Of a stretch of 29,308 nt of DNA, positions 1,857-26,014 are shown piece after piece. The notes under the pieces were generated by a model. It was not told the origin of the DNA and ran no database searches. It worked only from the letters and a program-made list of their open reading frames with translations. Source of the stretch: an archaeon (lineage in GTDB: Archaea > Nanobdellota > Nanobdellia > Woesearchaeales > UBA9642). The translations under genes were made by a program, and so were the position numbers. The stretch is taken from assembly GCA_043806035.1 (NCBI GenBank), contig JAZDHK010000030.1, positions 1-29,308 on the forward strand, read 5' to 3'. Position 1 is the first letter of the stretch; each line of letters starts with the position of its first letter.

Positions 1857-2087
1857 TCAATTAGAACCGGGTAGATACTTCTTCTCAAGCAGCCCATTCA
1901 CGGTCTCGACGGGGTAGAGCTTGCCGAAAGGGACGGTGATGCAGTCGCTGACGTGCCTCGCATGATGGGCATGATACGGGAAGTAATGCTGCTTGCCCAA
2001 TTTCTCTTCTTCATGCAAGAGCACATCGAGATTACGCAGTTCTTTCGTTCGCCGCTGCATAAGCTGCATTGCTTCGTCAGGATTCAT
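1857..2087 (-). CDS. Small hypothetical protein (76 aa, MNPDEAMQLMQRR...)
   Basis: ATG at 2087 overlaps the TGA of the upstream gene (ATGA coupling); no recognisable motif; His-rich patch YHAHHARH. Confidence 0.55.
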   Translation of the reverse strand: MNPDEAMQLMQRRTKELRNLDVLLHEEEKLGKQHYFPYHAHHARHVSDCITVPFGKLYPVETVNGLLEKKYLPGSN

Positions 2088-4348
2088 CGTACGCGCAGCA
2101 GCCACAACAGGTAGATGCTGAGCAGGATGATCATGAACAGAGAAAGGTTTGTCCATTCACAATACGCGGTAATTCGCTGTAGGAACGTTGGAGAGGGCAC
2201 CTCTACCACTTCTAGGAGGAAATCCGTGCTGGACGTGCTTTCGGACACGACGTCCGTTGCCGTGAACGTAATGGTCTGTTTACCGTGCCAATTCCTTTCG
2301 GGGATAAGTTTTGCCGCATCCCTGTCTATGCTTGCCGTGATGTGGTCAGTCGCTGACGAAGAATACGTGAGCCTGCTGTTTTCTGGGCTGTAGAAGTAGT
2401 CGTTTAGAGATAGCGTCTTGTACTGGTTCTCATACCAGGCAATGTGCAGGGAGTCTGTTTCTGGAAGGGAAGGATACTGTAGATGAATCTTGACCATGAA
2501 TATTGCCAAGAATGCGGACAACAGCACAAAGACGACAAGCACTATCCAGAACGTCTTGAAGTACAGCCTATTCTCCTTCTTGAACTTCTTCGTCAGCCTG
2601 ATTTTTTTCATGGTGCATAAGCGCAGCACGAACAGGCAGGCGATGACGAGCAAGAGCACGTTGAAGAGCATGCAAGGATGCAGGACAAGATACTGGTATG
2701 CACGAATAAGGAAGGGTTGACGCGCAAGCCTCACTTTTACGGGCAGGTCATAGCTGTATGCATCGCTCTGGGCGTGTACCTTGACATCATACATGCCTTC
2801 TGTGCCATTGGGAGAGAAGAAGAGCAATACCTCTTTTTCCTCGTTAGGGCTGAGCGTTATCGTTGTTTCGTTCATGCTCGCCCAGGCTGGGCCGTCAAGG
2901 CTGAGGTCATAGGTTGCTGTTCTGTACGGGCCGTTCGTGAGCATGACTGACTTTTGTGAGGGATCGTATCCTATTCTGATGAGGTTTCCCTTGATGGAGA
3001 GTTGCCTGCACGCGTGTTCGGAAAGCAATTGCACGTCAAGCGTGTCACTTGTCCAAAAACCGTTTTCGAGGGAAGCATTCACGCGCAATGTGTAGTCGCC
3101 TTCAAGTTGAGGCTGGTCTTCAGTATCGACGATGAGGGTTGTGTTCTTCTCCTCCCCAGAATCGAGGATGACTTGTTCTTTCGTGAGTTCGGCAAAGGTA
3201 GGCCCTTGGAGCGTGAGTTTCACTGTTTCCGAAAAAGAACCATCATTTCGTATTAGCACGGGTAGTTCGTATGTTCCCGGGCAGGCAGTTATGCGCTCGG
3301 AAAGAATGTCCACGCGAGGATTGTAGCAGTTGCTGATCTGTGCATGGAGAGGGAGTGCTTGTTCTTTATTGAGGCTAGCGATGTGCATGGTCAGTTCATG
3401 ACCGCCTACGTCTCTGCTGTCTTCAGGATGTACTTTTACTGCGACGTGCTGTGTTTCTCCTGGTTCAAGATGCAATGCAGTGTGGTCGAGATAGAATCCG
3501 TTCTGTGTCGGTGCGTCCTGTTCTAGGGTGAAGGAGAAATCATTGGCGAAATGCAAAGGATTGTGCATATCAATCGTGTAGGTGTTTTCTTGGTTGAGAC
3601 AGACAGCAAATGTTCCATCGTGGCTAAGATCATATCCGTATTGGTCTTCGATGGTGATGTTTATGTCTTTCGTGGTTTGCAGCTTGTTTTTCTGTGCTTT
3701 TGCCGTAAACGTGAATTGCGTCTCACCATATGTTTTGCAGTCGAATGCGTATGCTATCTGGAATGTTCTGCTCTGGTTGGGCGGAAGCGATATTGGCTCA
3801 GCGGGCGTTGTTCGTGCATCATCATGGTTTGAGGTCAGCATGTACTCTTCAGGGAAAGATCCTGTGTTCTGCAGGGTTGCCTCAAAGGTGATGGGCGAGC
3901 AGGGTAGCACATAGTCCTGCACTGGCGCGATATTGAAGAGCAGGTTTTGGCATTGCTTGATGACTGCTTTTCTTTCCAACATCTTTGTTTTGCCCGTGCT
4001 CGATGCCACGATAACATGATAGTCGAGCGTTTTTTGCTGGCCGCACTCGCCACGAATGGTGAGCTGGACTAGTTTTGATTTTCCGGGCTGAAGCTCGAAT
4101 GTTCTCTCACTGACGAACACGTCATTGTCGACATTGACAGAGAATACGGAGGGGTACGTTCCCGTATTGGTCACCAAGAGCGTGTCCTGGTAGGATGTGC
4201 AGCTGCAGACGGTTGGATTGCTGCCTTCCATGGCGATGCTGAAATCTGTGCTCACACCATACAGCACGACGTCTATCCTTGCGTACGCTAGTGGAAAGAG
4301 CAAAAGTACAAAAATCGCAAGTAGTGCTGCATATCGCACACATACCAC
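2084..4348 (-). CDS. Secreted, membrane-anchored multi-Ig-fold (CARDB/NEW3-like) surface protein with three C-terminal-region TM helices
   Basis: Signal peptide (YAALLAIFVLLLFPLAYA); about five repeats of N-x-G...L-x-PGE; TM pair separated by a Lys-rich loop; cadherin-like domain; terminal TM. Confidence 0.85.
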   Translation of the reverse strand: MVCVRYAALLAIFVLLLFPLAYARIDVVLYGVSTDFSIAMEGSNPTVCSCTSYQDTLLVTNTGTYPSVFSVNVDNDVFVSERTFELQPGKSKLVQLTIRGECGQQKTLDYHVIVASSTGKTKMLERKAVIKQCQNLLFNIAPVQDYVLPCSPITFEATLQNTGSFPEEYMLTSNHDDARTTPAEPISLPPNQSRTFQIAYAFDCKTYGETQFTFTAKAQKNKLQTTKDINITIEDQYGYDLSHDGTFAVCLNQENTYTIDMHNPLHFANDFSFTLEQDAPTQNGFYLDHTALHLEPGETQHVAVKVHPEDSRDVGGHELTMHIASLNKEQALPLHAQISNCYNPRVDILSERITACPGTYELPVLIRNDGSFSETVKLTLQGPTFAELTKEQVILDSGEEKNTTLIVDTEDQPQLEGDYTLRVNASLENGFWTSDTLDVQLLSEHACRQLSIKGNLIRIGYDPSQKSVMLTNGPYRTATYDLSLDGPAWASMNETTITLSPNEEKEVLLFFSPNGTEGMYDVKVHAQSDAYSYDLPVKVRLARQPFLIRAYQYLVLHPCMLFNVLLLVIACLFVLRLCTMKKIRLTKKFKKENRLYFKTFWIVLVVFVLLSAFLAIFMVKIHLQYPSLPETDSLHIAWYENQYKTLSLNDYFYSPENSRLTYSSSATDHITASIDRDAAKLIPERNWHGKQTITFTATDVVSESTSSTDFLLEVVEVPSPTFLQRITAYCEWTNLSLFMIILLSIYLLWLLRVR

Positions 4349-5690: not shown

Positions 5691-8600
5691 TTACTTTTTA
5701 CACACATTGCAGGTCTTGTCTGTAACGAGGACAGGCACGTATTTGGCACGCGTCACCTTACCATTGCTAATGCTGACATGTGCCTCGTATTCTCCAAGAG
5801 GAGCGTCATCCATGAGCACGAGGAGTTCATATGCCTGCCGCTTTCCCTTGCCCAGATCATACGCACCCGTCTTTGCCTTGATCGCCAGTTCTGGAATAAC
5901 TACCGTCATGCGCACATCCTTGATCTTGTCTTCTTCATTCTTGACGAGCGCATACACCATAAGATCCTCTCCTTGCTGGACAACGAATGGCTCTTGTTCC
6001 TGGCTGCCGTACGCGTCTAATTGCAGTATGCTGAGCATTCCTCTTTCATCAACGACTTGTTTTGCTGTACTACGTTCGACTATCCTGTACGTCGCCATTG
6101 CCATGTCTGTTCTACCGTACTGATCTCTGACCAGCAAGGTTACAGGGAACTGGCCAATGGTGCTGAACGTCGTGTCAAGATACGGCACGATTGTCGTTAG
6201 CACGCTGTTCTGCACCTGCCACGTATATGTCAGATTTGTTCCTTGACTCTGCTCGCCGTTGATGCGCACGACTTCATTGATGAATCCTGTGAATGGTGGG
6301 CTGAGAACTGCATCGAGCGGTCCTGGAGCGACAACGTGGATGCGTATGTCTGCGCTTGATTCTTCACCTTGTGCATCAACACACTGCATCCTCACCTGAT
6401 ATGTATTTGGCTCATCTATCGTGGTGTGAACGGTGTACCCTTCTCCAATAACACCTTTGCCTACAATGCTCCACGTGCCAGGGAATTGCCCTTGCTCCGC
6501 ATCGGTGCAGTAGCCTGTAAAGGTTATGGTTTGTCCGGTGATGAATGTAGATTCATCCTCTGGTGAGGTAATGACTGCCTGCGGGGCTTCGTTCAGATGC
6601 TGGACGCAGAGGTTGACATCTTCCGCATCCGTGAACTCACCATCACTAACAGAAAATTGCACAGCATACGTTCCTGCCTGTCCTTGCTGTGTGTTCCAGG
6701 AGAACGTCTGCTGGGTAAACTGTGCGCCTGAAGGCAGATCTGTTGCCGAATACACGAGTACATCACCATCTGGGTCTGAAGCGCTGACGGAGAACGTTAT
6801 CGTTTCCCCTTCTGTGACACAGGCAGGGTCAGCAATGGGATAAAAGACGGGCGGTCTGTTGCCTTGCAGCACGCAGAGCGTTATCGTCTGTTGTGTTTCC
6901 AGTTGGCCATCGCTTGCCGTGAAGACAATGGTGTAATTGCCTGGCTGTGTGGGTGTCCAGTCGAATGTGCCTTGTTGGAAGACTGCTCCTTCAGGCAATG
7001 ACGCTGCAGTGATAGTTACTGCATCGCCGTCAGGATCTGAAGCTGAAACGGTGAAGTGTATTATTGTGCCGACAGGGACGCAGCCGAGTTCAGGCAAAGG
7101 ATCAAATATGGGTGCGTGATTTTCCTGCGCTAGCACGTCGACTCGCGCATCTGTCGTGTCCGCAAGCTGGCCATCGGAGACGAGAAGGAAGACATCATGC
7201 CGTCCTGGCGTCGTGAACGTGTGCTGGACAATACGCCCTTCTGTCTCAAATACGCCGTCGTCGTTAAGATCCCACGCATACTGAACGAGAGGGTCGTTGT
7301 CTCGATCATAGCTTCTCGAGCCGTCGAATGTTATGCGTTCATTAACGCGTGGCAGGATTGGCGTGTAGTTGATGACGGCAGTTGGCTCCCTGTTGAGGTT
7401 GAGCACGCAAAGAACAGTACCTATGCTGACGCGTGCGTGGCCATCACTCACCGTGAACGTGACGGTGTAATTGTCCGCCTGGTCATAATCAGGCGTCCAA
7501 GAGAAAAGCTGGTCGGTAAAAGATGCGCCGCGAGGGAGTGCTGACGTAGTGTACGTGAGCTCATCTCCATCCGCATCGTATGCAGTCACGAGGAACGATA
7601 ACAAACGACCTTCTTGTACGCAGCCGGGGGCAGAGAATGTAAACACGGGAAGGGTATTCTCTGCAGCGATTACCTGAACGAGGAGGGCTTCCTCTGCAGT
7701 GTCTCCATCAAGGTCTTGCACGCTGACCGTGACGGTTGCGTTGCCTTCCTGCAGTGCAGTGATGTGGAGTGTGGTGCCTATAATCCATGCAGTTATGGCA
7801 TCGCTAGTTTCACGTACAGACCACTGTAGGTTGTGTTCGTCTTCAATGTCATGCCCACTGAGATGGATGCTGATACTCTCTCCACTGTGGAGTTGTTGTG
7901 CGGGAAGGGGATCTATTGTCGGGGGATTGTTGAATATGAGTATTGCTGTCTGGGCTTCCCCTCCTACATTGTTGTCAAAGACGAAGCTGAACACGAATCC
8001 TTCTCCGAGGAAGTCGTGCGTTGGAGGGATAGGCAGGGCGGCATATCTATATGCGTGTCCTGCATTGCCTACTGCACGTAATCTTAGGCGTCCTCCTGTT
8101 CTGGGGCTGACCAGGTCAACTTCTGCAGGCAGGTTATCCACGTACTGGCCTTTGCTGTCCCGTACATTGAAAGAGACGTACAATGGCTCGTTCCTGTAAA
8201 AGATCGTGTCCGGATGCATGAATAGGGAGTCGTTGAATGTGCTTAAGCCAGTGATGGTGTACGTTTCCGCAAGAACGGTGAATGTGAACGGTCCTGCTGT
8301 ACCATCAGGATAGTGTTGTTTCGTTGCCGTTGCATAGATGGCATACTCTCCCAGGTCGTGCATGGTGCGTAGTGCGCTGCAGCCTCCGGAAAGGCTGTCT
8401 GTGGTGCACGTGCCAAAGATGGCTCCGTTCGCGAAAGAGAACGTTACGCTTGCTCTCGCGACAGGCATATCGTGGTCATCGATGACACGTGCCTGGCAGC
8501 TTTGGTTGTGATGTTGGATGACCCTGTCGAAGCAGGAGAGCTCGACATGGAGTGTCGCACTGACGGTGAATGTCTTTGTCTCACCATCTGATGCGCTGCC

Positions 8601-11600
8601 GTCAAAGACGAGCAGTCGTGCCGTGTACGTTCCGGGTTCTGTGTAGGTTCGGTGCACGATTCTTCCCGTATCATCCCAATTTCCATCACCGGTGAAATCC
8701 CAGTAGTAGAGCAGCAGGTCATTATCGGGATCTGAACTTGCCGTTGCATCGAACGTTATGCTGCCTGTAGCTGGGTGTTCTGGACTGATGGTGAAGTCAG
8801 CATGAGGTGGTCGGTTCGTGTTCAGCACGTGGATGGTGATTGTCTCGTTGTCCGTGAGTTGCCCATCAGAGACAATGAAGGTAATAGGATAGTCGCCTGC
8901 TTGATCATAGCTTGGTGTCCAGGAGAATGTTCTGTTGTTGAACGTGCTTCCTTGCGGCAGCGTATGTGCGGTGTAGTACAAGGCATCATTGTCAGGGTCT
9001 GTTGCATGTATGGTAAAGGAGAGTGTGTTTTCCTCCTGCACCGTCTTGTCGCCTATGGGCTGCAGGACGGGAGGGTGGTTGCCTCCTTCTACACTGATGG
9101 TGTGCTCGACAACATTCCAGGCACGGCCATCACTGACGTTCAAACGGACAACATGTCCGCCCGGTAGAGGGAAGCTGTGTAAGACGATGCGTCCCGTGCT
9201 CTCATAGTTGCCATCGTTGTTGAAATCCCATGCGTATTGCAAGAGATCACCATCGGGGTCAGTGCTATCGGTAGCGTTAAAGAGTACGGTTTCGCCAACG
9301 AGTGGATGTGCTGGTGTGTACGTGAATTGGGCAATGGGTACATGGTTTTCTCCAGGGATGACATGCACTATCATGACTGCTTCATCCTGGTCGAGATCAA
9401 GATCCTTGAGGGTGAGCGCCAACTGGCCGCTTCCTGTGAATTGCGGTGTGAGGGTGAGTTGCTTCCCCTGCAAATCTGCAAGGAAGGGAACGGGAGGCAG
9501 AGGCTGTACTATGCTCCACGTGAGGTTCGTGCCTCTGTCTTCTAGATCATGCTCGTATTCGCCCAAAAATATGGTTTGCGGATGTCCTGTGGTCAAGGTT
9601 ATGGCTGCTGGCAGGTTCACGATCTGCGGCGGATTGTTGAGGATGGTGATGTTCGTCGATTTTTGGTCTCCTGCCGTGTCTGTGTAATTGATGTAGAACG
9701 CGAAGACTTCTCCTGTGCCGATGAAGTCGTGCGTTATGGGTATTGGCCTGAGGCCGAATCGATAATGCCCGTCGAAAAAGCCTAGGCTGTCAAGGGTGAT
9801 ACGTGCCCCTGTCGCTATGCTAATGAGCGTGACTGATGTGACCACGTCCCTCGTTTCCGGGTCGTCAAGGGAATTTCTGATGCCGAACTGGACGTACAAG
9901 TCCTCTCCTCTAAAGAAGGTGTCGTCGACGTGCATGAATACTGAGTCGTTGTACGTATGCAAGTCGACGATGGTGTACCGTCTCGGGACGACAGCGAAGG
10001 AAATGTTTGGTGTTGCGTCCAGATCAGGCAGATATCCTTGCAGTTCTGCATGAGCGTACGCAGTGTAGACGCCAAGCGTGGACAGGGTGAGTCTGACGAT
10101 GCATCTGCCCTGGTCGTTTGTCATACACGTTTTGCTGATATTTGTCGTGCCTGTGTTTGCAAAGAAGGTGATGGTCGCATCAGACAGTGCCTGTTGCAGG
10201 GCTATCGTGCACACTTGCTCACTGTGTTGGATGACGACGGGGAAGCAGTCGATAGCGGCGACGCTCAACTGCTGTACTGCACTTACCAGGACGTTGTGGA
10301 TGACGGTCGTGTTCGCTTGTCCGTCAGAGACGACGAGCCGCACCGCATACAGGCCCGCTTCGAATGTGTGCGTGCTCGTATTGCCTGTTGCATCGATGCT
10401 GCCGTCGTTTGTGAAATCCCATGCGTACGTGAGCGGATCATGGTCTGGATCGGCGGCAGTCGCGTGGAAGGTGACTGGTTCTCCACTAACCGGATGTTCA
10501 GGAGTGAAGACAAAGTCTGCCACGGGTGGTCTGTTTATGATTGGCAACACGCTCACTTGCCGCATCCTATACGTGTAGTTCGTGCCGTCAAAGACGCGCA
10601 ACAGCACAACATATGCAGGATCAGGTCTCGTGAACACGTGCGTTGCTGTTCTGCCGTGAGCATCCCATGTGCCATCATTATCGAAGTCCCAATCGAATGT
10701 CAGCGGATCATTGTCTGGGTCGTGGCTGAAGGTGACGTTGAAAAGGGTGGTTTCGTTGACGTGCGCTGGCTGAGGCGTGTAGTTCCATTGGGCGTCTGGA
10801 GGTCGATTCGTGTTGAGAACGGTGATGCGAATGGCCTCGTAGTCGTATGCCTGACCATCTGAGACGTTGAACAAGACACCAGCATACACGCCCGCCTGGT
10901 TGTAGTTGGGTGTCCAGCTGAATGTCCTCGTTGTTGGGTTAAACGAGGCGCCTGTAGGCAAATTGCCTGCGTTGAACGACAAAGGATCGTCGTCTTCGTC
11001 AGTAGCGGAAATGACGAAAGACAGCAAGGCACCCTCGGCGATAGTCTTGTCACCTATGGGCTGCAGGACGGGTGGGTGATTGGGAGATGTCTCAACGATG
11101 AGCGTTCTGTTCGTGAACACATACTGTCCTCCTTGGCCGACACGCAAGGTAACCACGTATGTTCCTTGAGCAAATGCGTGTGTCGTGTTCACGCCGTACG
11201 CATCGACGTAGCCGTCGCTCGTGAAATCCCATGCGTAGCTCGTGATGGGTCCATCGACGTCAAAGCTCGATGAGGCATCGAAGAAGACCTCCTGCCCACT
11301 GACGGGATGGACAGGTGAGTATGTGAATTGCGCATATGGTGGTTGCGGTACGTTGGTGACGGTTATAGTTACGTTTTCTCTGTCCTCAAGGAAGCCGTCG
11401 CTGGCGACGAATGTGACAACATATGTTCCTGCTTGATCATATCCTGGCGTCCACGTGAACAGTCCATATCTTCCCATACGTGAGCCTCTTGGTGCATTGG
11501 GTGCAGTGATGTCGACGCAATCCCAATCATCACAATCAGGATCCTCAGCAACAATCTGCAAACTTATCGATTCCCCCTCAGCAACCGTAATAGGAGGGAT

Positions 11601-12761
11601 TGGCTGTATGACGGGTGCGCGGTTGACATCAGTGACCGTTATCGTGAGATTTTCTCTGTCCTCAAGAAGACCATCGCTCGCGACAAACATAATAACGTAC
11701 GTTCCTGCCTGATCATATCCTGGCGTCCACGTGAACAAGCCATATCTACCAATGCGCGAACCAACAGGAGCATTGAGTGCAGTAATGTCAACGCAATCCC
11801 AATCATCACAATCAGGATCCTCAGCAACAATCTGCAAACTTATCGATTCCCCCTCAGCAACCGTAATAGGAGCGAGAGGCTGTATGACTGGCGGTCGGTT
11901 CACATCAAAGACGGTGATGATTATGGTTTCATTATCAGAAAGCAGGCCATCTGATGCTGAAAAGGTAACGGTGTATGTTCCTGCTTGCTCGTACGTTGGC
12001 GTCCAAATAAAGGTATTGCCGTTGAGCTGCGCACCGTACGGGAGTGGATTGGCACTGAATGTGATGTTGTCATCGTTAGGATCGGTAGCATTGAGAATGA
12101 TAGTGAGCGTCTGTCCTTCGTCGACTTGTTTGTTGCCGATAGTATAGAGTGTGGGGGGCGCGGAAGGATAGTGAACGGTGATGAGTGGCGTTTGGACGAG
12201 CATGGCGTCATTGTCGCTGTCTCTCACGAGGCAGGATGCCTGATGAATACCCGGGTCATACGTTGCCGTGACAACCTGTCCCGTCATGTCAATCATATCA
12301 TCTCCGTTCGTGTCCCATCTGAATGAGAGGGGAGGGTTGCCGCCTGTTGCCGAGCAGGACAATGTCACCGTGAGTGGGGCTGTGCCTTCCAAAGGAGTTG
12401 CTGTTGCTATGACATTTGTGAGTGGAATTTCATCATGATTGCACACGCCGTCACCATCAGTATCTGTACATCGTATGGTTACTTGGTCTGTTGCTGCAGG
12501 CACGTAGAATCCTGGATAGTAGACATCACACCGCCACACTTCGTTTTCGATCGTGTTTCCTGAGGGAATGTAGTCTGTGGTGAATCCGCTCTGCCACTGG
12601 TTGTTCCTATACCAGAGATAGATGAAATTTCCCCATTCATCAACTTGGCAGAGAAGGCTGTGCCCCTCATCGGGTTCGTTGGGGAGTATTTCCGCGTGGA
12701 GCGCCGCGACGCTCGTCGTGAGCAAGGTGAGGATGAGAAAAAATGCGAATGCTGATTTCAT
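5691..12761 (-). CDS. Giant secreted surface protein/adhesin (2356 aa) with many PKD and putative-Ig/cadherin-like domains
   Basis: Start reassigned to ATG 12761 (GGAGG upstream, ATGA overlap, signal peptide MKSAFAFFLILTLLTTSVAA); repeated PKD motifs (Y-x-WDF-xx-DG, V-x-L-x-VSDG) and cadherin-like motifs (N-x-PP, A-x-DPD, FSWTP-x-Y-x-QAG); many N-x-S/T sequons; no C-terminal TM. Confidence 0.92.
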   Translation of the reverse strand: MKSAFAFFLILTLLTTSVAALHAEILPNEPDEGHSLLCQVDEWGNFIYLWYRNNQWQSGFTTDYIPSGNTIENEVWRCDVYYPGFYVPAATDQVTIRCTDTDGDGVCNHDEIPLTNVIATATPLEGTAPLTVTLSCSATGGNPPLSFRWDTNGDDMIDMTGQVVTATYDPGIHQASCLVRDSDNDAMLVQTPLITVHYPSAPPTLYTIGNKQVDEGQTLTIILNATDPNDDNITFSANPLPYGAQLNGNTFIWTPTYEQAGTYTVTFSASDGLLSDNETIIITVFDVNRPPVIQPLAPITVAEGESISLQIVAEDPDCDDWDCVDITALNAPVGSRIGRYGLFTWTPGYDQAGTYVIMFVASDGLLEDRENLTITVTDVNRAPVIQPIPPITVAEGESISLQIVAEDPDCDDWDCVDITAPNAPRGSRMGRYGLFTWTPGYDQAGTYVVTFVASDGFLEDRENVTITVTNVPQPPYAQFTYSPVHPVSGQEVFFDASSSFDVDGPITSYAWDFTSDGYVDAYGVNTTHAFAQGTYVVTLRVGQGGQYVFTNRTLIVETSPNHPPVLQPIGDKTIAEGALLSFVISATDEDDDPLSFNAGNLPTGASFNPTTRTFSWTPNYNQAGVYAGVLFNVSDGQAYDYEAIRITVLNTNRPPDAQWNYTPQPAHVNETTLFNVTFSHDPDNDPLTFDWDFDNDGTWDAHGRTATHVFTRPDPAYVVLLRVFDGTNYTYRMRQVSVLPIINRPPVADFVFTPEHPVSGEPVTFHATAADPDHDPLTYAWDFTNDGSIDATGNTSTHTFEAGLYAVRLVVSDGQANTTVIHNVLVSAVQQLSVAAIDCFPVVIQHSEQVCTIALQQALSDATITFFANTGTTNISKTCMTNDQGRCIVRLTLSTLGVYTAYAHAELQGYLPDLDATPNISFAVVPRRYTIVDLHTYNDSVFMHVDDTFFRGEDLYVQFGIRNSLDDPETRDVVTSVTLISIATGARITLDSLGFFDGHYRFGLRPIPITHDFIGTGEVFAFYINYTDTAGDQKSTNITILNNPPQIVNLPAAITLTTGHPQTIFLGEYEHDLEDRGTNLTWSIVQPLPPVPFLADLQGKQLTLTPQFTGSGQLALTLKDLDLDQDEAVMIVHVIPGENHVPIAQFTYTPAHPLVGETVLFNATDSTDPDGDLLQYAWDFNNDGNYESTGRIVLHSFPLPGGHVVRLNVSDGRAWNVVEHTISVEGGNHPPVLQPIGDKTVQEENTLSFTIHATDPDNDALYYTAHTLPQGSTFNNRTFSWTPSYDQAGDYPITFIVSDGQLTDNETITIHVLNTNRPPHADFTISPEHPATGSITFDATASSDPDNDLLLYYWDFTGDGNWDDTGRIVHRTYTEPGTYTARLLVFDGSASDGETKTFTVSATLHVELSCFDRVIQHHNQSCQARVIDDHDMPVARASVTFSFANGAIFGTCTTDSLSGGCSALRTMHDLGEYAIYATATKQHYPDGTAGPFTFTVLAETYTITGLSTFNDSLFMHPDTIFYRNEPLYVSFNVRDSKGQYVDNLPAEVDLVSPRTGGRLRLRAVGNAGHAYRYAALPIPPTHDFLGEGFVFSFVFDNNVGGEAQTAILIFNNPPTIDPLPAQQLHSGESISIHLSGHDIEDEHNLQWSVRETSDAITAWIIGTTLHITALQEGNATVTVSVQDLDGDTAEEALLVQVIAAENTLPVFTFSAPGCVQEGRLLSFLVTAYDADGDELTYTTSALPRGASFTDQLFSWTPDYDQADNYTVTFTVSDGHARVSIGTVLCVLNLNREPTAVINYTPILPRVNERITFDGSRSYDRDNDPLVQYAWDLNDDGVFETEGRIVQHTFTTPGRHDVFLLVSDGQLADTTDARVDVLAQENHAPIFDPLPELGCVPVGTIIHFTVSASDPDGDAVTITAASLPEGAVFQQGTFDWTPTQPGNYTIVFTASDGQLETQQTITLCVLQGNRPPVFYPIADPACVTEGETITFSVSASDPDGDVLVYSATDLPSGAQFTQQTFSWNTQQGQAGTYAVQFSVSDGEFTDAEDVNLCVQHLNEAPQAVITSPEDESTFITGQTITFTGYCTDAEQGQFPGTWSIVGKGVIGEGYTVHTTIDEPNTYQVRMQCVDAQGEESSADIRIHVVAPGPLDAVLSPPFTGFINEVVRINGEQSQGTNLTYTWQVQNSVLTTIVPYLDTTFSTIGQFPVTLLVRDQYGRTDMAMATYRIVERSTAKQVVDERGMLSILQLDAYGSQEQEPFVVQQGEDLMVYALVKNEEDKIKDVRMTVVIPELAIKAKTGAYDLGKGKRQAYELLVLMDDAPLGEYEAHVSISNGKVTRAKYVPVLVTDKTCNVCKK
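11349..11900 (-). repeat. Tandem 276-bp (92-aa) domain duplication inside the giant adhesin
   Basis: Units 11900-11625 and 11624-11349; 82 bp identical at 11515-11596 and 11791-11872. Confidence 0.9.
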
Positions 12762-14272
12762 AGTCTGCCTCCGACCATGCGGTAGAGGTCGATGTCTGTG
12801 CCTATGCTTATGTTGATCTTGCCCCAATAGTTCTTTTCCGCATGTACTGGTCCTGCATCGAAGTTTGTCAATGTGTGTCCGTACGTGCATCCGATAATAA
12901 GTGGCTTGACAGGCATGATGTTGACGCTTCCCACGTATTCATGGACATTGCCTTCCTCAGGGAAGCCTTGCTCGTGTTGCAGACGAGAATATGCTGCAGA
13001 GCCTGCAATGTGCAAGGGAATGCCAAGCGTAAAGCCTATGCCAAGCTGTCCTCTGTACGTGGTGAGTTGTTGCTTTGATGTTGGATCAAACCACGGATTT
13101 GTAGGGTCTGTTGTTATGGGTTGGCCTTCATACGTGTGTTTTCTCTGCGCTCGCATATATTCTGCAGCGGCATCAACGAAGGAAGCATGCTTGATCTGGT
13201 CAAACCATATGCGTTGTCCTACGCCAAGACCTCTGCACGTCGTCGTTACCTTTTCTGTTCTGTGCACGCCGTGCACTCCCAGATAGTCGACAGGTTTTGC
13301 AGATGCGTCTCTGCCAAGGATGCCATATGTCCTGAATCCTTTGAAGCCAATGCCTCCTCGGATTTGTTCGGCATCGTGTCGTGCAGTGTAGCTGCCAAGC
13401 GTGTTGTCCTTGCAGTCCTTGATGATGCCGTTCTTTCCCCAGTCCAGGGCTGCATTGCCGTGCAGGTAGAGTGTCCATGCCCTGTCCTTGAGGGCAAGGA
13501 TGCCTTCCACTGTAGGTCCTGCATTCCAGTCACTGTAGGTTGTTCTCGTGTTGCAGGGGAAGACGGGCAGGGCATAGTCATCCTGGAGCCATTGGCCTGC
13601 CGTGATGCCAATCGTTCCTCCTGCATGAAGAGACGTTGAAGGAGGTTCTGGTGTTTGTTGTTCCAGAGTTGCAAACGCGGTGAGCACATCCAAGTAGACG
13701 ACGTTCAGTTCGAGGGCAAACATTCTATCTTCAAGAGTAGTGATGCGCTGCTCATGATTCTCTGCTATGTCGATGAGCGTGTTGATCCTGCTGATCATTA
13801 TGTTGTAGTTCTCGATGGAGAGTGGAAGCGCGACATCTCTTCCTTTTGCAAAGGAGACGTTTCCTCCAAGCAGTGCTAGTTTTGTACGTAGTGCCTTGTC
13901 AAAGTACAGCGTATCCGGAGGAATGCTGTCGTTGCCTATGTTGAGTATGTCTCCTCTAATGCCGTCCTTTCCTGAGAAGGTGGAATCATTGCGTACGAAG
14001 CGTACGTCCTTGTTGAGCCGCTGCCAGTTCTTGTCAGTCCAATATCTTTTTTGGGCATCGACGATGACGTTGCAGGCTTCGGGGAGATTCTGTTCAGGGA
14101 TGTGGATGAAGTCTTTTGCTATGTTCCAGAGCTTGTTCCCGCTCTGTACGGTGTAGTCCTGCGTTTGTGTAAGGGGTTGCGGTTGCAATTTGTCGGGTAT
14201 GTGTATTGGTTCCTGCGCAAACGTGCATGCTGCTGCACCGAGTACGAATGTAGAAACAAGAGACTTCATCAT
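12758..14272 (-). CDS. Secreted protein: signal peptide, LysM-like segment, coiled coil and C-terminal beta-rich (predicted beta-barrel) domain
   Basis: Start reassigned to ATG 14272 after GAAGGGGGT; YTVQSGNKLWNIAK resembles the LysM start; heptads ...ENHEQRITTLEDRMFALE; alternating Gly/aromatic amphipathic strands over the last ~290 aa. Confidence 0.75.
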   Translation of the reverse strand: MMKSLVSTFVLGAAACTFAQEPIHIPDKLQPQPLTQTQDYTVQSGNKLWNIAKDFIHIPEQNLPEACNVIVDAQKRYWTDKNWQRLNKDVRFVRNDSTFSGKDGIRGDILNIGNDSIPPDTLYFDKALRTKLALLGGNVSFAKGRDVALPLSIENYNIMISRINTLIDIAENHEQRITTLEDRMFALELNVVYLDVLTAFATLEQQTPEPPSTSLHAGGTIGITAGQWLQDDYALPVFPCNTRTTYSDWNAGPTVEGILALKDRAWTLYLHGNAALDWGKNGIIKDCKDNTLGSYTARHDAEQIRGGIGFKGFRTYGILGRDASAKPVDYLGVHGVHRTEKVTTTCRGLGVGQRIWFDQIKHASFVDAAAEYMRAQRKHTYEGQPITTDPTNPWFDPTSKQQLTTYRGQLGIGFTLGIPLHIAGSAAYSRLQHEQGFPEEGNVHEYVGSVNIMPVKPLIIGCTYGHTLTNFDAGPVHAEKNYWGKINISIGTDIDLYRMVGGRL

Positions 14273-14344
14273 GCTATTACCCCCTTCAGTGGAATGAGCA
14301 ACCACCACAATTACAATTACTCACCGAAAAAGAGTAACATTCCA

Positions 14345-14359
14345 TATTTAAAGTTTTCG
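14345..14359 (-). promoter_or_regulatory. BRE + TATA promoter for the barrel/adhesin operon
   Basis: Minus strand CGAAAACTTTAAATA upstream of 14272. Confidence 0.65.
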
Positions 14360-14426
14360 CAGAAAGTCGACGATTATCTGCAAAAAAAAAGAAAACGCTA
14401 AAAAGGGAAGCGCTTTGCAAAAGTGC

Positions 14427-20009: not shown

Positions 20010-20043
20010 GTGTCGTTACATTTATATAAACCGTGTCGTCACA
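20010..20043 (+). promoter_or_regulatory. TATA box of the glycosyltransferase operon flanked by an 11-bp direct repeat
   Basis: GTGTCGTTACA-TTTATATAAACC-GTGTCGTCACA; TATA ends 20 nt before ATG 20051, consistent with a leaderless mRNA. Confidence 0.65.
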
Positions 20044-20050
20044 CCCTTGC

Positions 20051-21154
20051 ATGGAACGGATTACCGTTAATTACAACATTGGCCTCAAACGGGACTACCT
20101 CTGCAGCATTGACAAGTATAATGAAAACATCAGGAAATTCCTTGCGGATAAGGTTGCGTATCACGATAATTATTTCAAAAGCAAGCAATATGGGTTTATG
20201 AGATTGTTCAAACAGTTTTTTCTTTTTCCCCTGCGCATCTGCGCGCTCAACAAGTACAGAAGGATAAATTATTTTATCGATCCTGCATCAGCGTTGAATT
20301 TCATATTTCCCATACGAAAGAAGATTATCGTCATCTATGACCTTAACAGAGAGAAAGAAGGCACGATTGCACAGAAACTCGGCTATGCATTAACTGCCAT
20401 GAGCTGGAGTTTCCTTAAAAAAGCAGACTTGATCATCACCATCAGTGAAGCAACAAAGAAAAACATAATGGAGCAGTTGCACATTCCTACCAGCAAAATA
20501 CGGATCGTGTACCCTGCTGTTGATCACAAGGCATATAGGCCCATTCATTTTGACAAAAAAAAATTCCTGAAAAAGTACGATATCAAGGAAGACAAGAAAA
20601 TAATCCTGTATGTGGGAACGGAGCAGAACAGGAAGAATGTTGATGTGTTGATCAGGGCGATGAGCACGTTACGAGAGCTCGGTGTCAAATTTCAGTTCGT
20701 TAAGATAGGGGCGCACCAGAACGAGAAGAATCGAAAAAGAAACGTGAAACTCATTCGAGAATTACATCTCACTGAACACATCAAGATTATCAATCAGGTT
20801 GAGGAAAAAGAACTGCCCTTGTTTTACAACGCTGCGGATGTTTTCGTTTTTCCCAGTGTATTCGAAGGATTTGGTATGCCTCCGCTTGAAGCGATGGCGT
20901 GTGGCTGTCCCGTCATCACCACGCACAAAACGTCTCTGCAAGAAGTGGTCGGCGATGCAGCGATCATACTCAAGAAGGTCACGCCTAAGAGCATAGCAGA
21001 TAATATCCTGCGCGTTTTGCAGGACACGAAACTACGAAAGACATTGCGAATAAAAGGACTTCGTCAGGCAAAAAAATTCGATTGGAAAAGCAGCGCAGAG
21101 AACATGTGTGCCACACTCAATGCATTTGAAAGAAGCTACGAGAGAAGAACATGA
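20051..21154 (+). CDS. GT4 family glycosyltransferase
   Basis: [23 protein letters not shown] motif; start reassigned to ATG 20051. Confidence 0.92.
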
Positions 21155-22590
21155 GATTCAACAAAGTGCTGCTCATAACGCCATTCTTCAGCGGAGAGCG
21201 ATACACGGCAGTCCTCACTGCGGGAACAGGATACATCGCAGAAACACTCAAGAGAGAGAACATACCGTTGGAAGTGATAGATCCTAATCTTAATCCCGAT
21301 CTGAAGCAGACACTCAAACTTATCAGGAAAACGATTCTGACGTTCCAGCCCGATTTGATAGCACTAGGTATGATGAGCATAAACTACTACAAAGATTATG
21401 AGGTCATACGGGAGATTAAAAAATATTATCCCGATATGAAGATTCTTGTCGGCGGCCATCACTCTTCGACGTTCAGGGAGCGGATTTTCAATGAGACTAC
21501 TGACGTTGATTATGCAGTCATTCTCGAAGGTGAGGAAACGGTTGTCGAACTGTGCAAAGGCAAGCCGCTTGCAGAAATAAAAGGATTGATGTACAAGGAG
21601 GGTGGTGCAGTAAAATATAATGGTGACAGGGCGTTCGTCAAGGATCTCGACAGCATACCCTTCCCCACCTATCCTGGCTATGACCTGAAAAAATACCCCG
21701 ATCTCACCCTCCACATCGTCACCTCACGCGGCTGCCCCTATTGCTGCACATACTGTCCAGTAAAAACAACCATCGGAAGGGTATTCCGGGTACGAAGTGC
21801 AAAACACGTGGTAGATGAGCTCGAATACTGGTATGAACGAGGCATAAAGAATTTTGGTATCGTCGATGATAACTTCACATTGTACAGGGATCGTGTTTTT
21901 GAGATTTGCGACGAGATAGAGAAGCGAGGCATACAGGCGAACTTCAATCTGGGCAACGGCATACGGGCAGACAAGGTGGATTATGATATGCTGAAACGGT
22001 TGAAAGCTGTCGGTTTCACCGAGATTGCCATCGGTGTCGAGTCTGCGAACGACCACGTCCTGAAAAGTGTGAAGAAAGGAGAAAATCTTGCCACAATCGA
22101 GAAAGCAGTACAACTGGCCTGCGAACTTGGATTCGAGGTCGGCCTATTTTTTATCCTCGGATCGCCCGGAGAGACAAAAGAGGACATAATGAATTCGTTC
22201 AAGTTCGCGTTGAAGTACCCTGTCGACTACGCATATTTTTACAACATCATCCCCTTTCCCAACACGGAACTGTTTGATTACCTCGAAAAGAACAACTTGT
22301 TTCTCGCACCCTACCAGACCTATCTTAATGCGTCTTCCCATTGGAACGAGCGCCCTGCTTTCGTGACGCCAGAATTAGGGTATGCCGATCGTATACGGAT
22401 GTATCGTCTGGGAAAGAAAATAACGAAAAAAATCCAGATACGACGCATAAAGAAACGGCTGAAAAAACTAGGTCCGCTTGCCACACTCGCAGCGCATGCG
22501 ATTTCCAATGACACCCTCCAACGAATCCTGATGACGAATCGAACAACAAAAAAGATAATCATTAAAATAAAGAACGTGTTCTGGAAATAA
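21151..22590 (+). CDS. Cobalamin-binding radical SAM protein (class B methyltransferase-like)
   Basis: N-terminal B12-binding-type region (VGGHH, GEE), TSRGCPYCCTYC, DDNF, GVES, G-x-PGET. Confidence 0.9.
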   Translation: MRFNKVLLITPFFSGERYTAVLTAGTGYIAETLKRENIPLEVIDPNLNPDLKQTLKLIRKTILTFQPDLIALGMMSINYYKDYEVIREIKKYYPDMKILVGGHHSSTFRERIFNETTDVDYAVILEGEETVVELCKGKPLAEIKGLMYKEGGAVKYNGDRAFVKDLDSIPFPTYPGYDLKKYPDLTLHIVTSRGCPYCCTYCPVKTTIGRVFRVRSAKHVVDELEYWYERGIKNFGIVDDNFTLYRDRVFEICDEIEKRGIQANFNLGNGIRADKVDYDMLKRLKAVGFTEIAIGVESANDHVLKSVKKGENLATIEKAVQLACELGFEVGLFFILGSPGETKEDIMNSFKFALKYPVDYAYFYNIIPFPNTELFDYLEKNNLFLAPYQTYLNASSHWNERPAFVTPELGYADRIRMYRLGKKITKKIQIRRIKKRLKKLGPLATLAAHAISNDTLQRILMTNRTTKKIIIKIKNVFWK

Positions 22591-22592
22591 AG

Positions 22593-23693
22593 ATGAGAAA
22601 AAACAAAAAAGCAAGTACTGCCCTTGTCGTTGATTTCATAGACGGGATAATAACTGAAAAACCGTTCGGTGTCCGCGTGTATCAAGAAAAAATACATGAA
22701 CGATTGCCGCAAGTTCACAGGAACATCATAAGATACAAAGCGAGCAAAAACGTGTTCATCCACCTCTTGCAGCGGCTATTCGTATACCCCGCGAAAATCA
22801 TCTTCAAAATGAAAAAAAACAGGATAACCTACATCACCATGCCCGACCTGGCATACTTGTTACATGTCTTCAGGTTCAAAAAATGCATCGTCGGCTGCTA
22901 TGATCTGACTTCTCTACGACGAATACGCGATTATCACTGGATAACACGCATAGGCATACGAAGCAATTATGATGCAATAAAAAAATATGCGACACGGATC
23001 ATCACGCACAGCGCATACTCGAAAAATGACATACACAAAAAACTAGGTATTCCCCTCGATAATATCGACATCATCCACCCCATGGTAGATCATGAACTCT
23101 TTTCTCCAAAAAGAAACAAGACATACCTAAAAAAGTATGGGCTCACTCCTGCTGATTCTGTTGTTCTGTATGTGGGTTCTGAAGAACCTCGACAAAATGT
23201 TGACAAGGTACTGCGCGCCATTGCTCTCGTTAGAAAAAAACTGCCCCGTGTACAATTATTGAAAATAGGGAATGCACATTGGGAAGGCGCCCGTGAAAAG
23301 CATCAAAAGATTATCAAAGAGCTCGGACTACAGAACAATGTCGTGTGGGGAGGTCCTGCGGATCCCATCAAAGAACTTCCTAAGATTTATAACGCAGTTG
23401 ATGTGCTGGTCTATCCGTGCAGCTACAGTGGATGGGGACTACCTCCATTAGAAGCCATGGCCTGCGGCACGCCAACCATCATTTCGAATAGGACATCACT
23501 GCCTGAAGTGGGAGGAGATGCAGCCATACAGGTAAAACCCACCGATGAAAAGCAGATCGCAAAGACAATTATTGCTGTACTCACCAACGATAAAAAAAGA
23601 AAGGATATGTCAAGAAAAGGTCTGCAGCATGCAGCAAAATTCACCTGGGACAATGCAGCAAAGCAGACGTTGACAGTGTACAGAATAACATAA
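22593..23693 (+). CDS. GT4 family glycosyltransferase
   Basis: [23 protein letters not shown]; paralogous to 20051-21154. Confidence 0.9.
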   Translation: MRKNKKASTALVVDFIDGIITEKPFGVRVYQEKIHERLPQVHRNIIRYKASKNVFIHLLQRLFVYPAKIIFKMKKNRITYITMPDLAYLLHVFRFKKCIVGCYDLTSLRRIRDYHWITRIGIRSNYDAIKKYATRIITHSAYSKNDIHKKLGIPLDNIDIIHPMVDHELFSPKRNKTYLKKYGLTPADSVVLYVGSEEPRQNVDKVLRAIALVRKKLPRVQLLKIGNAHWEGAREKHQKIIKELGLQNNVVWGGPADPIKELPKIYNAVDVLVYPCSYSGWGLPPLEAMACGTPTIISNRTSLPEVGGDAAIQVKPTDEKQIAKTIIAVLTNDKKRKDMSRKGLQHAAKFTWDNAAKQTLTVYRIT

Positions 23694-23793
23694 CAACACA
23701 GCAGGCATGCACGAATTCGCTTTGCACATCTTTTCTACTAGGGGGCTCCGCTGAAGAATGGCGTTTCTGGTCATGACCTGTCGACCACCATTC

Positions 23794-23809
23794 AATAAAC
23801 TATTTAAAT
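23794..23809 (+). promoter_or_regulatory. TATA promoter for the sugar-nucleotide genes
   Basis: AATAAACTATTTAAAT, followed by GGGGGGTGG just before ATG 23843. Confidence 0.6.
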
Positions 23810-23842
23810 GCACAGAGAATTCCCTATCTGGGGGGGTGGATA

Positions 23843-25024
23843 ATGGATATTGTAGCAGGTGTAGGCTATTCACACATAAGCGAAAAAGCTAAAACATATG
23901 TGATGGAAGCACTAGATAATCCCTGGTTCATCCATGGCAAGTTCGTGCAGCGGCTGGAAAAGGAATTCTCGAAAGAGCATGAGTGCACATTCGGAATAGT
24001 GACGAACAGCGGTACAAGCTCTCTGCACATAGCCATCCAAGCCCTCAAGGAACTGCACCAATGGAACAATAATGACGAAGTCATCGTCCCCGCAGTGACC
24101 TTTGTTGCAACGGCAAACGTCGTCATCCACAATAATCTCAAGCCGGTCTTCGTCGATGTTGACCCTGATTATTATGAACTCGATCCAAACAAGCTGGAGG
24201 AGAAGATAACGGAAAAGACGCGAGCGATACTGCCCGTCCATCTGTTCGGTCAACCGTGCGACATGGACCCCATCATGGCAGTGGCAAAGAAATATGATCT
24301 AAAGGTGGTGGAGGATTCCTGCGAGACCATGTTTGCCAGCTACAAGGGAAAGCGCGTTGGCAGCTTTGGAGATATCGGTTGCTTCTCCACCTATGTCGCC
24401 CACATCATCAGTTCAGGCGTTGGAGGTATCTCCACGACGAACAATCCCGATTATGCGATAAAATTGAGGTCACTGATGAACCACGGAAGGGATTCCATCT
24501 ACATCAATATCGGCGACAGCAAGAACGCCACCGACAAGGAGCTTGAAGAAATCATTGCGAAAAGATTCTCCTTCATCAATGTGGGGCACAGTTTTCGGCT
24601 CACTGAAATGGAAGGCGCTATCGCCTGCGCAGAGCTCGAGGATCATGCTCAGAACATACGAAGAAGACAGGAAAATGCAGCGTACTTGATAGATCGCCTG
24701 CAGAACATCGAACAGTTGCAACTTCCGAAAATAAGGAAAGATGCCGAACATTCGTTCATGATGTTTCCCATCGTGTTAAAAGACAGGGTGAAGGCTGAAC
24801 TCGTCAACTATCTCGAACAGCACGGCGTTGAAACGCGAGATATGCTTCCTTTGGTGAATCAGCCGATATACACAAGGCTATATGGGACGACCGAAGATGA
24901 TTATCCTGTCGCCAAATGGATAAACCACAATGGATTCTATGTCGGCTGCCACCAGCATCTTGACAGAAAACAACTCGACCACATAGCAACAACGATAAGG
25001 AAATATTTTGAGGATTGCAGCTGA
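23843..25024 (+). CDS. DegT/DnrJ/EryC1/StrS-family PLP enzyme with His at the Schiff-base Lys position; probable NDP-4-keto-6-deoxyhexose 3-dehydratase (ColD-like)
   Basis: NSGTSSL, PVHLFG, EDSCE; FSTYVAHIISSGVGG where aminotransferases have FSFxxxKxxxxGEGG. Confidence 0.85.
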   Translation: MDIVAGVGYSHISEKAKTYVMEALDNPWFIHGKFVQRLEKEFSKEHECTFGIVTNSGTSSLHIAIQALKELHQWNNNDEVIVPAVTFVATANVVIHNNLKPVFVDVDPDYYELDPNKLEEKITEKTRAILPVHLFGQPCDMDPIMAVAKKYDLKVVEDSCETMFASYKGKRVGSFGDIGCFSTYVAHIISSGVGGISTTNNPDYAIKLRSLMNHGRDSIYINIGDSKNATDKELEEIIAKRFSFINVGHSFRLTEMEGAIACAELEDHAQNIRRRQENAAYLIDRLQNIEQLQLPKIRKDAEHSFMMFPIVLKDRVKAELVNYLEQHGVETRDMLPLVNQPIYTRLYGTTEDDYPVAKWINHNGFYVGCHQHLDRKQLDHIATTIRKYFEDCS

Positions 25025-25039
25025 CCTGTGAGACCAACC

Positions 25040-25993: not shown

Positions 25994-26014
25994 TACGGTA
26001 AGGGTGGTGTACAT

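Follow-up and report, generated by a model that had tools for sequence, protein, structure and literature searches.

A secreted archaeal protein with a LysM-like head and a candidate barrel-type tail, encoded directly ahead of a giant PKD/Ig protein at a conserved position in a surface gene cluster

The window considered here, a stretch of 29,308 nucleotides (nt) that constitutes the entire contig C30 (JAZDHK010000030.1) of the archaeal genome G000 (order Woesearchaeales; 1.50 Mb in 42 contigs, 93.7% complete and 2.0% contaminated), contains a gene, P0001, whose product combines a Sec-type signal peptide, a LysM-like N-terminal head, a probable helical linker and a C-terminal domain rich in glycine and aromatic residues. 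The gene is translationally coupled to one that encodes a giant secreted protein built from PKD and Ig-like repeats, and it occupies a position that is filled in every readable genome of the family and in many genomes from elsewhere in the order. An even chance is given to the reading that P0001 is a modular envelope anchor, in which a swappable glycan- or wall-binding head would be joined to a BamA-independent barrel resembling those of outer-membrane proteins (OMPs) and partnered with the adhesin. Both the conservation of position and the evidence bearing on the nature of the C-terminal domain are set out below, and the coordinates of all features are collected in Table 1.

The P0001 gene and its junction with the downstream gene

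The reading frame of P0001 is open on the minus strand over 12758..14308 and would specify 516 amino acids (aa) if begun at a GTG codon; begun at the ATG at 14272, ahead of which a Shine-Dalgarno-like GGGGG is situated, it specifies 504 aa with the N-terminal sequence MMKSLV. Further upstream, the earlier note on this DNA had described an archaeal BRE/TATA promoter: an element TTTAAATA behind a purine-rich GCGAAAAC is indeed present about 75 nt from the start codon, in a divergent intergenic region of about 150 nt, but was recognised by eye only, and we infer from its sequence that it may function as an archaeal promoter.

Hydropathy analysis located one strongly hydrophobic stretch at the N-terminus and a second, more moderate one at residues 185-203, and gave no membrane helix apart from the signal peptide. 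The first of these stretches, taken together with a cleavage-like site (TFA ahead of Q), was the basis on which a signal peptide was assigned, in agreement with the earlier note, and signal-peptide ends of the A-x-A type ahead of Q are common to the homolog P0002 and most of the positional analogs of P0001. Residues 185-203 were considered as a membrane helix and rejected, the stretch having D and E within it and being deleted in P0002.

At its 3' end P0001 overlaps the next gene through an ATGA stop/start junction preceded, within the last P0001 codons, by a GGAGG, an arrangement characteristic of translational coupling. The 2356-aa product of that gene comprises eight PKD stretches, eight He_PIG/Big_9 stretches and cadherin-like domains; it starts with a signal peptide and lacks a membrane anchor. 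The longest frame of the gene opens 129 nt before the ATG of the signal peptide. A complex prediction conducted with the P0001 tail and the N-terminal 147 residues of the mature giant protein gave a median of 0.27 against a mark of 0.32, and was uninformative either way.

An exhaustive phmmer search of P0001 against 1.84 billion representatives returned nine proteins at the threshold of E ≤ 0.001, P0001 itself included, amongst which P0002 (455 aa, E 6.9e-18) was the sole full-length relative, with 25% identity over 513 columns by BLASTP. The existence of a full-length homolog indicates that the P0001 gene is more than a product of chance. P0002 is on record as a JGI singleton on two contigs, the longest of 34,049 bases. 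As for the remaining proteins, P0004 and P0007 matched in the head only, P0005 and probably P0008 and P0009 are ordinary multi-LysM proteins, and P0003 and P0006 were rejected as tandem-repeat artefacts. Further searches for homologous proteins returned nothing beyond the query itself, and related-locus searches of genome, metagenome and viral contigs found nothing.

A conserved position upstream of the PKD gene

Two genes beyond P0001 lies a gene for a 420-aa Ig-like surface protein which, being present in 19 of 19 family genomes (44-52% identity) and in 90 of 101 genomes of the order, is a core gene, and the DNA upstream of it was surveyed in G005 and the other genomes of the family. The locus of G005, a 100% complete genome of the same family, reads AglB, two small membrane proteins, a 447-aa open reading frame (ORF; P0010), an 840-aa PKD protein and two Ig-like genes. 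In all 12 further family genomes with a contig that extends past the PKD gene, an ORF of 409-534 aa was found directly upstream on the same strand, either overlapping the PKD gene or separated from it by 0-136 nt. Counting G005 and G000, the slot is therefore filled in 14 of 14 readable family genomes; G002, G004, G008, G010 and G013, in which the contig ends too early, were left out of the count. In G015 (L053:3143-4426) and G007 (L064:3216-4589) the slot ORF overlaps the beginning of the longest PKD frame by 35-76 nt, and the true PKD start probably lies further in, which is also the case for the gene in the window.

Most slot proteins have a signal peptide that ends A-x-A ahead of Q; their N-termini differ widely, and their tails contain 11.7% glycine in the last 200 residues. 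They are near-orphans. By BLAST they fell into a group of six linked via their tails (G009, G018, G014, G012, G017 and G016), the pair G003 and G006, a third group of P0001, P0002 and G007 linked via head and linker (E 2e-5 and 4e-8), and four singletons. A hidden Markov model (HMM) of the six-member tail group recruited G015 (1e-11) and G005 (4e-8), and none of P0001, P0002, G007, G003/G006, G011 or G001.

Equivalent inspection of 20 regions fetched from upstream of the core gene in other families showed that in 14 a large secreted PKD-type ORF adjoins the core gene on a contig that continues, and that in about nine of those 14 the next ORF upstream has a glycine-rich OMP-like tail, as judged by eye with no formal test. 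Slot ORFs of G024, G424 and G095 end in F, and one of the other-family ORFs ends ...VGYGGR like P0001 and P0002; tail matching of 12 such ORFs linked only that of G121, weakly (5e-4). The slot protein of G035 has an N-terminal head of a different family, SH3_3 (Table 1). This conservation of gene position, family-wide and in other families of the order, was not part of the earlier note. P0001 would on this evidence be the G000 version of a fast-evolving gene kept at one place in a conserved surface cluster near AglB.

The LysM-like head and the linker

When the whole of P0001 was scanned, Pfam LysM (PF01476) matched residues 40-63 only (E 0.043, 14.2 bits); the domain alone scored 17.2 bits and the genome scan, in which P0001 was the only LysM-like match of G000, gave 16.9 bits, so that every scan (14.2-17.2 bits) fell under the Pfam gathering threshold of 20.9 bits. 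A profile of the head was compiled from seven sequences, namely P0001, P0002, P0004, P0007 and three archaeal loci, all seven of which match Pfam LysM at E ≤ 1 (best 1.1e-5). Compared with the PDB, this profile matched LytE (E 3.2e-10, whole chain) and YaaH (7.7e-5), with Ecp6, AtlA and others weaker, its positions 3-23 corresponding to the beta1-alpha1 half of the LysM repeat and its positions 64-85 to the ...L-x-x-D-x-L-x-V-G-Q-x-L half. As both halves are matched, the P0001 head is identified as a LysM derivative split by an insert of about 40 residues, which upholds the LysM-like start with a long insert that had been read from the sequence alone. It resembles canonical LysM in possessing both beta-alpha-alpha-beta halves (Y-x-V-x-x-G-[DN]-x-L-W-x-I and G-I-[KR]-G-D-x-[LI]-x-x-G-D), and differs from it in the insert and in its sub-gathering scores. 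AlphaFold2 gave a predicted local distance difference test score (pLDDT) of 25-36 over the head, an unusable model.

Among 401 genomes of the class, eight were found to carry the insert-bearing variant, G000 being one of them. Where its frames were fully read (G024, G424, G316 and G070), a hydrophobic stretch precedes the domain in all four, and those of G024, G424 and G316 adjoin ribosomal protein L1, Cbf5 and RFC-like genes. The beta-rich tail was not found in the insert-LysM frames of G024, G424, G316, G070 or G246. P0004 (970 aa) has beside its insert-bearing LysM a long coiled coil and an N-terminus that is JAB/MPN-like by eye. As judged from these sequences, the variant is a small undescribed archaeal domain family.

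LysM domains bind polymers of N-acetylglucosamine (GlcNAc). By analogy, the ligand of the P0001 head could be a GlcNAc-type glycan of a host wall or the N-glycans of the cell's own surface, the latter being considered because AglB and glycosyltransferases are adjacent.

The segment between head and tail is likely helical, to judge from a helix at residues 153-199 seen only in an AlphaFold2 model of pLDDT 27. The heptad stalk previously proposed for it has fared less well, in that a helix is plausible but heptad periodicity was not significant: the best-frame a/d hydrophobic occupancy of residues 158-205 was 0.79, a value attained in 192 of 2000 shuffles. Part of the linker is deleted in P0002.

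The C-terminal beta-rich domain

The C-terminal domain of P0001 contains 12.4% glycine, against 6.0% in the proteome, and 10% aromatic residues, together with several long one-sided hydrophobic strands. The exact P0001 sequence is held by the ESM Atlas, with a model of pLDDT 0.58 and predicted template-modelling score 0.47, and all ten of the structural neighbours listed for that model were bacterial outer-membrane barrels of 12-14 strands (autotransporter beta-domains and Slam), aligned over 244-262 residues inside P0001 200-504. Normalised to the 504-aa query, template-modelling scores lay at 0.40-0.44; for two short targets consisting of a barrel only, normalisation to the target gave 0.64-0.70. 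Feature neighbours, obtained for P0001 and independently for P0002, were bacterial clusters of the LysM + OMP_b-brl, IAT_beta, Phenol_MetA_deg and OmpG types. In a table of glycine, aromatic and dyad measures the tail fell within the range of Escherichia coli OmpA, OmpX, OmpW, OmpT and OmpF, with a glycine fraction of 0.12 compared with 0.05-0.08 in Ig-like negatives.

Relatives in the slot contributed further indications. Pfam OMP_b-brl was detected below threshold in two of 15 slot proteins, those of G007 (in the tail, E 1.1e-4; located by genome scan at G007:C38:7493-7954, 22.2 bits) and G005 (E 0.006), the latter covering profile positions 17-175 of 175 and ending ...YKF; Porin_2 and Omp85 gave one weak match each among the slot proteins. 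At E ≤ 0.1, PF13505 was matched in four of 19 family genomes, and among the controls in five diderm bacteria only and in none of four archaea. A terminal F or Y was present in seven of 15 slot proteins, most of the others having F or Y in the last six residues, compared with a background of 8.1% of 1017 long G000 ORFs. Taken together, the language-model structure, the feature neighbours, the sub-threshold matches of relatives, the composition and the C-terminal endings form the grounds on which an OMP-like barrel, serving to anchor the pair, would be the simplest reading of the tail.

Several results weigh against that reading. Residues 205-504 of P0001 had no match in Pfam, NCBIfam (where only noise of the coiled-coil type was returned), PHROG or PDB sequences, and neither P0001 nor P0002 matched OMP_b-brl (PF13505 and clan) at E ≤ 10. 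AlphaFold2, monomer modelling by which had been suggested as a check, produced no usable model: from an alignment of only two sequences its pLDDT was 27.4 over the full length and 27.7 in a run on the tail alone, so that no independent fold for the tail was obtained. The ESM Atlas feature scores were all below 0.9 and are leads only, a third of shuffled proteins scoring likewise. Strand coverage overlapped that of pilins (ElfA 0.41, YcbU 0.46), and the glycine, aromatic and dyad thresholds were set after the values had been seen, so that these measures and the crude strand picker are barrel-consistent but non-discriminating. P0001 ends ...YRMVGGRL and P0002 ...VYGGKR, confirming the earlier observation that the terminal aromatic residue of a beta-signal is missing; when set against the loci of relatives (22.5% of 191 ORFs) the terminal-aromatic enrichment in the slot was weak (p = 0.034, or 0.07 with G003/G006 counted once).

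Searches with the slot proteins pointed in the same direction. No beta-barrel family reached its curated threshold in any of 25 slot proteins (28.7 bits for OMP_b-brl), and none of the ten other-family slot proteins scanned had an OMP-family match at E ≤ 0.1. By hhalign, the P0001 tail aligned with the tails of other slot proteins at a probability of 0.2%, and the slot tails aligned with each other and with E. coli OmpA, OmpX, OmpW, OmpT, OmpF, Ag43 and YeeJ at no more than 2.6%; PDB sequence searches with the slot-protein tails returned nothing relevant. The barrel described in the earlier note thus survives in part, inasmuch as its glycine- and aromatic-rich strands are present and the ESM model resembles outer-membrane barrels. 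As no family reached its threshold and AlphaFold2 returned no verdict, the barrel of P0001 is a candidate and not a demonstrated one.

The transmembrane beta-barrel counts as a hallmark of the bacterial outer membrane and of organelles with a bacterial ancestry, and it requires insertases of the Omp85 family. Scans for Omp85 (PF01103) gave no match at E ≤ 1 in G000, for all its 93.7% completeness, and nothing over the cut-off for Omp85/BamA in any of 19 family genomes compared with seven of seven diderm controls, the outcome of a survey for BamA-like genes that the earlier note had recommended. To our knowledge, neither an outer membrane nor barrels of the bacterial outer-membrane type are known in such archaea. 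A lipid-exposed barrel would consequently be left with no obvious home, since no Omp85 was found and no outer membrane is known, a further point against it. These two circumstances nevertheless cut both ways, either arguing for a soluble domain or making the case remarkable.

The soluble alternative holds that the tail is a glycine-rich beta domain (a sandwich, jelly-roll or solenoid) that helps to build, or docks to, a proteinaceous surface layer; P0001 would then be an adaptor that links glycan and adhesin in association with an S-layer and does not enter a membrane, its likeness to OMPs being compositional. The failure of any OMP family to reach threshold, the lack of an AlphaFold2 barrel and of a BamA, the one-sided hydrophobic strands shared with the control pilins, and the placing of the gene within an Ig-like surface cluster beside AglB and glycosyltransferases are all in its favour. 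It accords less readily with structural neighbours that are without exception closed outer-membrane barrels, with a glycine content double that of the Ig-like negatives, and with the recurrence in the slot of sub-threshold OMP_b-brl matches (none in control archaea) and of ...x-F endings. On balance a soluble tail is considered somewhat improbable, though still a serious contender.

Proposed role of P0001 and its partner

Returning to P0001 as a modular envelope anchor, the protein would be secreted by the Sec route as the product of the first gene of a two-gene unit, the second specifying the giant anchorless PKD/Ig-repeat adhesin. Its design would consist of a swappable N-terminal head that binds glycan or wall, a helical linker and a glycine- and aromatic-rich all-beta C-terminal domain. 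The beta domain would fold as a closed barrel of the bacterial outer-membrane type and would embed in, or dock tightly to, a lipid or lattice layer without the aid of a BamA-type insertase, while the head would bind a GlcNAc-containing glycan, whether of a host wall or among the N-glycans of the organism's own surface layer. The putative physical pairing of P0001 with the adhesin would then constitute an attachment device.

A bolder form of this proposal would extend it to the whole order: a large group of small-genome (DPANN-type) archaea would make true transmembrane beta-barrels in the absence of Omp85/BamA, with one fast-evolving, swappable-head copy per species encoded before the giant adhesin. 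Each barrel would insert unaided, either into the membrane of a host or into an outer lipid layer of the archaeon that has so far gone unrecognised, and would thereby anchor the adhesin. This wider claim is regarded as somewhat improbable.

An alternative role would be that of a released, self-inserting pore former or harpoon directed at the host membrane, more akin to a toxin than to an anchor in the organism's own envelope. Rapid divergence from species to species into orphans would fit an arms race at the level of host interaction, and heads of the wall-binding type, a genome in which no insertase was found, and genomes of the small size seen in host-dependent archaea (0.6-2.7 Mb across the order) are likewise compatible with such a role. 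Pfam and NCBIfam scans nonetheless revealed no similarity to any pore-forming toxin family, and the tight coupling to the adhesin gene and the constant place in the core envelope cluster suggest a structural function, leaving a pore former unlikely.

Archaeal origin of the gene

Given that the nearest feature neighbours are all bacterial and that heads of the LysM and SH3b kinds are characteristic of wall-binding proteins in bacteria, a bacterial source for the gene was also considered, either through a mis-binned or chimeric assembly or through recent and functionless transfer of a LysM-OMP gene; an integrase and a tRNA gene on the same contig might be taken to favour it. G000 has, on another contig, an archaeal small-subunit ribosomal RNA (1386 bits) together with a large-subunit one, and an AglB/STT3 gene is located 2.6 kb from P0001. 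This AglB is 50-55% identical to its counterparts in 12 genomes of the same family, 42-45% in the family's two remaining genera and 35-41% in other families of the order. Since this gradient tracks taxonomy, contig C30 follows the archaeal taxonomy of the organism, and this, with the archaeal ribosomal RNA, bears out the archaeal neighbours reported for the gene in the earlier note. The genomes listed for the order and class, at 0.6-2.7 Mb, are of the size expected in a reduced DPANN-type lineage. In G008, G014, G015, G017, G018 and G019 the AglB match was reported to contain in-frame stops (TGA, TAG or TAA), one or two in each case.

Other observations that run counter to a bacterial source are the overlap of P0001 with the start of a neighbour conserved in the family, the occupation of the slot in every readable family genome, the occurrence elsewhere in the class of the insert-bearing LysM variant with ribosomal protein L1, Cbf5 and RFC-like genes for neighbours, and a GC content of 0.51 compared with 0.49 for the genome. 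Mis-assembly, for which a check by read data had been proposed, is likewise opposed by a contig from a public run, probably the source sample itself, that bridges the junction of P0001 and the next gene (12487-13250); its depth there is even, at about 5, and it contains no joints. The stretch occurs only in Logan contigs from a single biofilm-metagenome study, again probably the source sample (share of 0.81 of sampled words); no listed Logan contig piece spans 14099-14323, and none of the public runs listed as containing the stretch was an RNA dataset. The integrase, moreover, lies beyond the tRNA, towards the contig end. A bacterial gene at this place is accordingly judged very improbable indeed.

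The integrase and tRNA genes, together with a fall in GC to 0.39 over positions 1-1000 of the window, resemble the margin of an integrated element lying where the contig ends. P0001 as cargo of such an element was rejected, the integrase occupying the interval from the tRNA to the contig end, away from the operon.

Organisation of the surrounding cluster

The features of the window, together with those of related loci mentioned above, are listed in Table 1. The whole locus is a surface-glycosylation island, in which the glycan-synthesis run beyond AglB comprises two GT4 glycosyltransferases, a B12-binding radical SAM enzyme, a DegT-type aminotransferase and four more ORFs. The 420-aa Ig-like protein may be a principal component of the envelope or S-layer in this order.

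PKD proteins in the loci of relatives (L049-L064 and L070-L088) range from 650 to 2356 aa, and most of those read end alike, in ...V-x-N-D-x-x-x-R-[IV]-K-Y-R-[ED]-[IL]-x-[IV]; the copy in the window has diverged at this end (~5691-5800), reading ...TRAKYVPVLV.... The conserved C-terminal end of the PKD proteins may dock to the conserved Ig-like membrane proteins.

Table 1. Positions of P0001, its parts and signals, other features of the window, and selected loci in related genomes
Feature	Position	Strand	Basis
P0001 coding sequence, 504 aa + stop	12758..14272	minus	ORF translation, homolog P0002
Shine-Dalgarno-like GGGGG, 7 nt 5' of P0001 ATG	14280..14284	minus	read directly
P0001 promoter-like element, TTTAAATA, with purine-rich GCGAAAAC before it	14345-14352 (TTTAAATA); 14353-14360 (GCGAAAAC)	minus	by eye
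P0001 Sec-type signal peptide, residues 1-20 (MMK, hydrophobic core, TFA ahead of Q)	14213..14272	minus	hydropathy
P0001 LysM-like domain, residues 38-125, with ~40-residue insert; YTVQSGNKLWNI... then ...GIRGDILNIG...LYF	13898..14161	minus	Pfam, profile
P0001 probable alpha-helical linker, residues 153-205	13658..13816	minus	low-confidence helix
P0001 Gly/aromatic all-beta C-terminal domain, residues 206-504, candidate OMP-like barrel	12761..13657	minus	ESM Atlas, composition
Translational coupling: GGAGG (12768-12772) in last P0001 codons; ATGA stop/start overlap (12758-12761)	12758..12772	minus	junction sequence
Downstream gene, 2356-aa secreted PKD/Ig protein	5691..12761	minus	domain scan, hydropathy
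420-aa Ig-like surface protein; signal peptide, CARDB/NPCBM_assoc-like domains, C-terminal transmembrane helix	4350..5612	minus	
Ig-like multi-domain protein; signal peptide, C-terminal transmembrane helices; last of cluster	2084..4348	minus	syntenic in G005
tRNA, 140 nt, 48.5 bits, presumably intron-containing	1630-1769	minus	Rfam; missed by ARAGORN
Phage-integrase-family gene, directly downstream of tRNA	781-1620	minus	
Glycan-synthesis run beyond AglB	20033-29234	plus	
Insert-LysM protein of G424 (the three listed, 265-325 aa)	L004:1192-2169	minus	
Insert-LysM protein of G024	L002:1042-1920	minus	
Insert-LysM protein of G316	L005:994-1791	plus	
Slot protein of G035, 0.6 Mb genome	L083:2800-4266	minus	SH3_3 (SH3b) N-terminal head, E 1e-8, above Pfam cut-off

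Comparison with known systems

OmpM/SlpA-type outer-membrane tethers, found in Negativicutes, Thermus and Deinococcus, consist of a wall-binding head, a helical stalk and a C-terminal beta-barrel, and the earlier note had assigned P0001 to this layout. The order of parts does hold, P0001 having a wall-binding-type head, a probable helical linker and a beta tail, but the likeness is one of layout only: the head is LysM-like and the Pfam scan detected no SLH domain, heptad periodicity was not significant, the ESM neighbours are barrels of 12-14 strands as opposed to large porins, and the cell is without a known outer membrane or peptidoglycan.

Because the translationally coupled next gene encodes a giant Ig/PKD protein, the inverse autotransporters of type Ve secretion (intimin, invasin and YeeJ) offer at least as close a parallel, in which signal peptide, LysM, a barrel of about 12 strands and long Ig-like repeats follow in the same order. 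An IAT_beta cluster was among the feature neighbours of P0002 (score 0.84, a lead only), and yeeJ of E. coli K-12 is annotated as 'inverse autotransporter adhesin'; two publications describe a LysM and peptidoglycan binding for YeeJ (PMC5595812, PMC3008723). By way of contrast, P0001 has no match to IAT_beta (PF11924), and hhalign to YeeJ residues 1-430 gave 0.1-0.2%. Moreover, the Ig/PKD 'passenger' is here the product of a separate, overlapping gene with a signal peptide of its own, and so could not be threaded as a covalent hairpin. The genome of P0001, being archaeal, also differs in that no Omp85 was found in it, and a probable helical linker is interposed between head and candidate barrel.

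Bacterial proteins that join LysM to OMP_b-brl (PF13505/PF13568) or to Phenol_MetA_deg share the two-module plan, and are nearest to P0001 and P0002 by features in the ESM Atlas, the bacterial clusters of which are named automatically. They differ from P0001 in that its feature scores with them were below 0.9, that it reached no Pfam threshold, and that its LysM insert is otherwise seen in archaeal proteins with a preceding hydrophobic stretch.

A search of the literature on DPANN or Woesearchaeota together with beta-barrel, porin, LysM, S-layer, PKD or adhesin did not reveal a description of the slot family. The only OMP-like hint for archaea that it produced was a single sentence in which a relative of PopA, possible and distant, is mentioned for Altiarchaeales (PMC12228718).

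Implications

Should archaeal barrels prove to be made without an insertase, self-insertion or a hitherto unknown route of insertion would have to be invoked, and these archaea would either have, or target, a second lipid layer. The slot proteins would then be the first beta-barrel membrane proteins of the Archaea and a candidate molecular basis for the attachment of symbiont to host, and, through a wall-glycan-reading head combined with a barrel as anchor and an adhesin of giant size, would offer a testable handle on how small symbiotic archaea attach to their partners. Even were the tail to be soluble, the variable-head protein would serve, along with the giant PKD protein that lacks an anchor and the Ig-like core membrane protein, as one of a marker trio for the envelope of the order.

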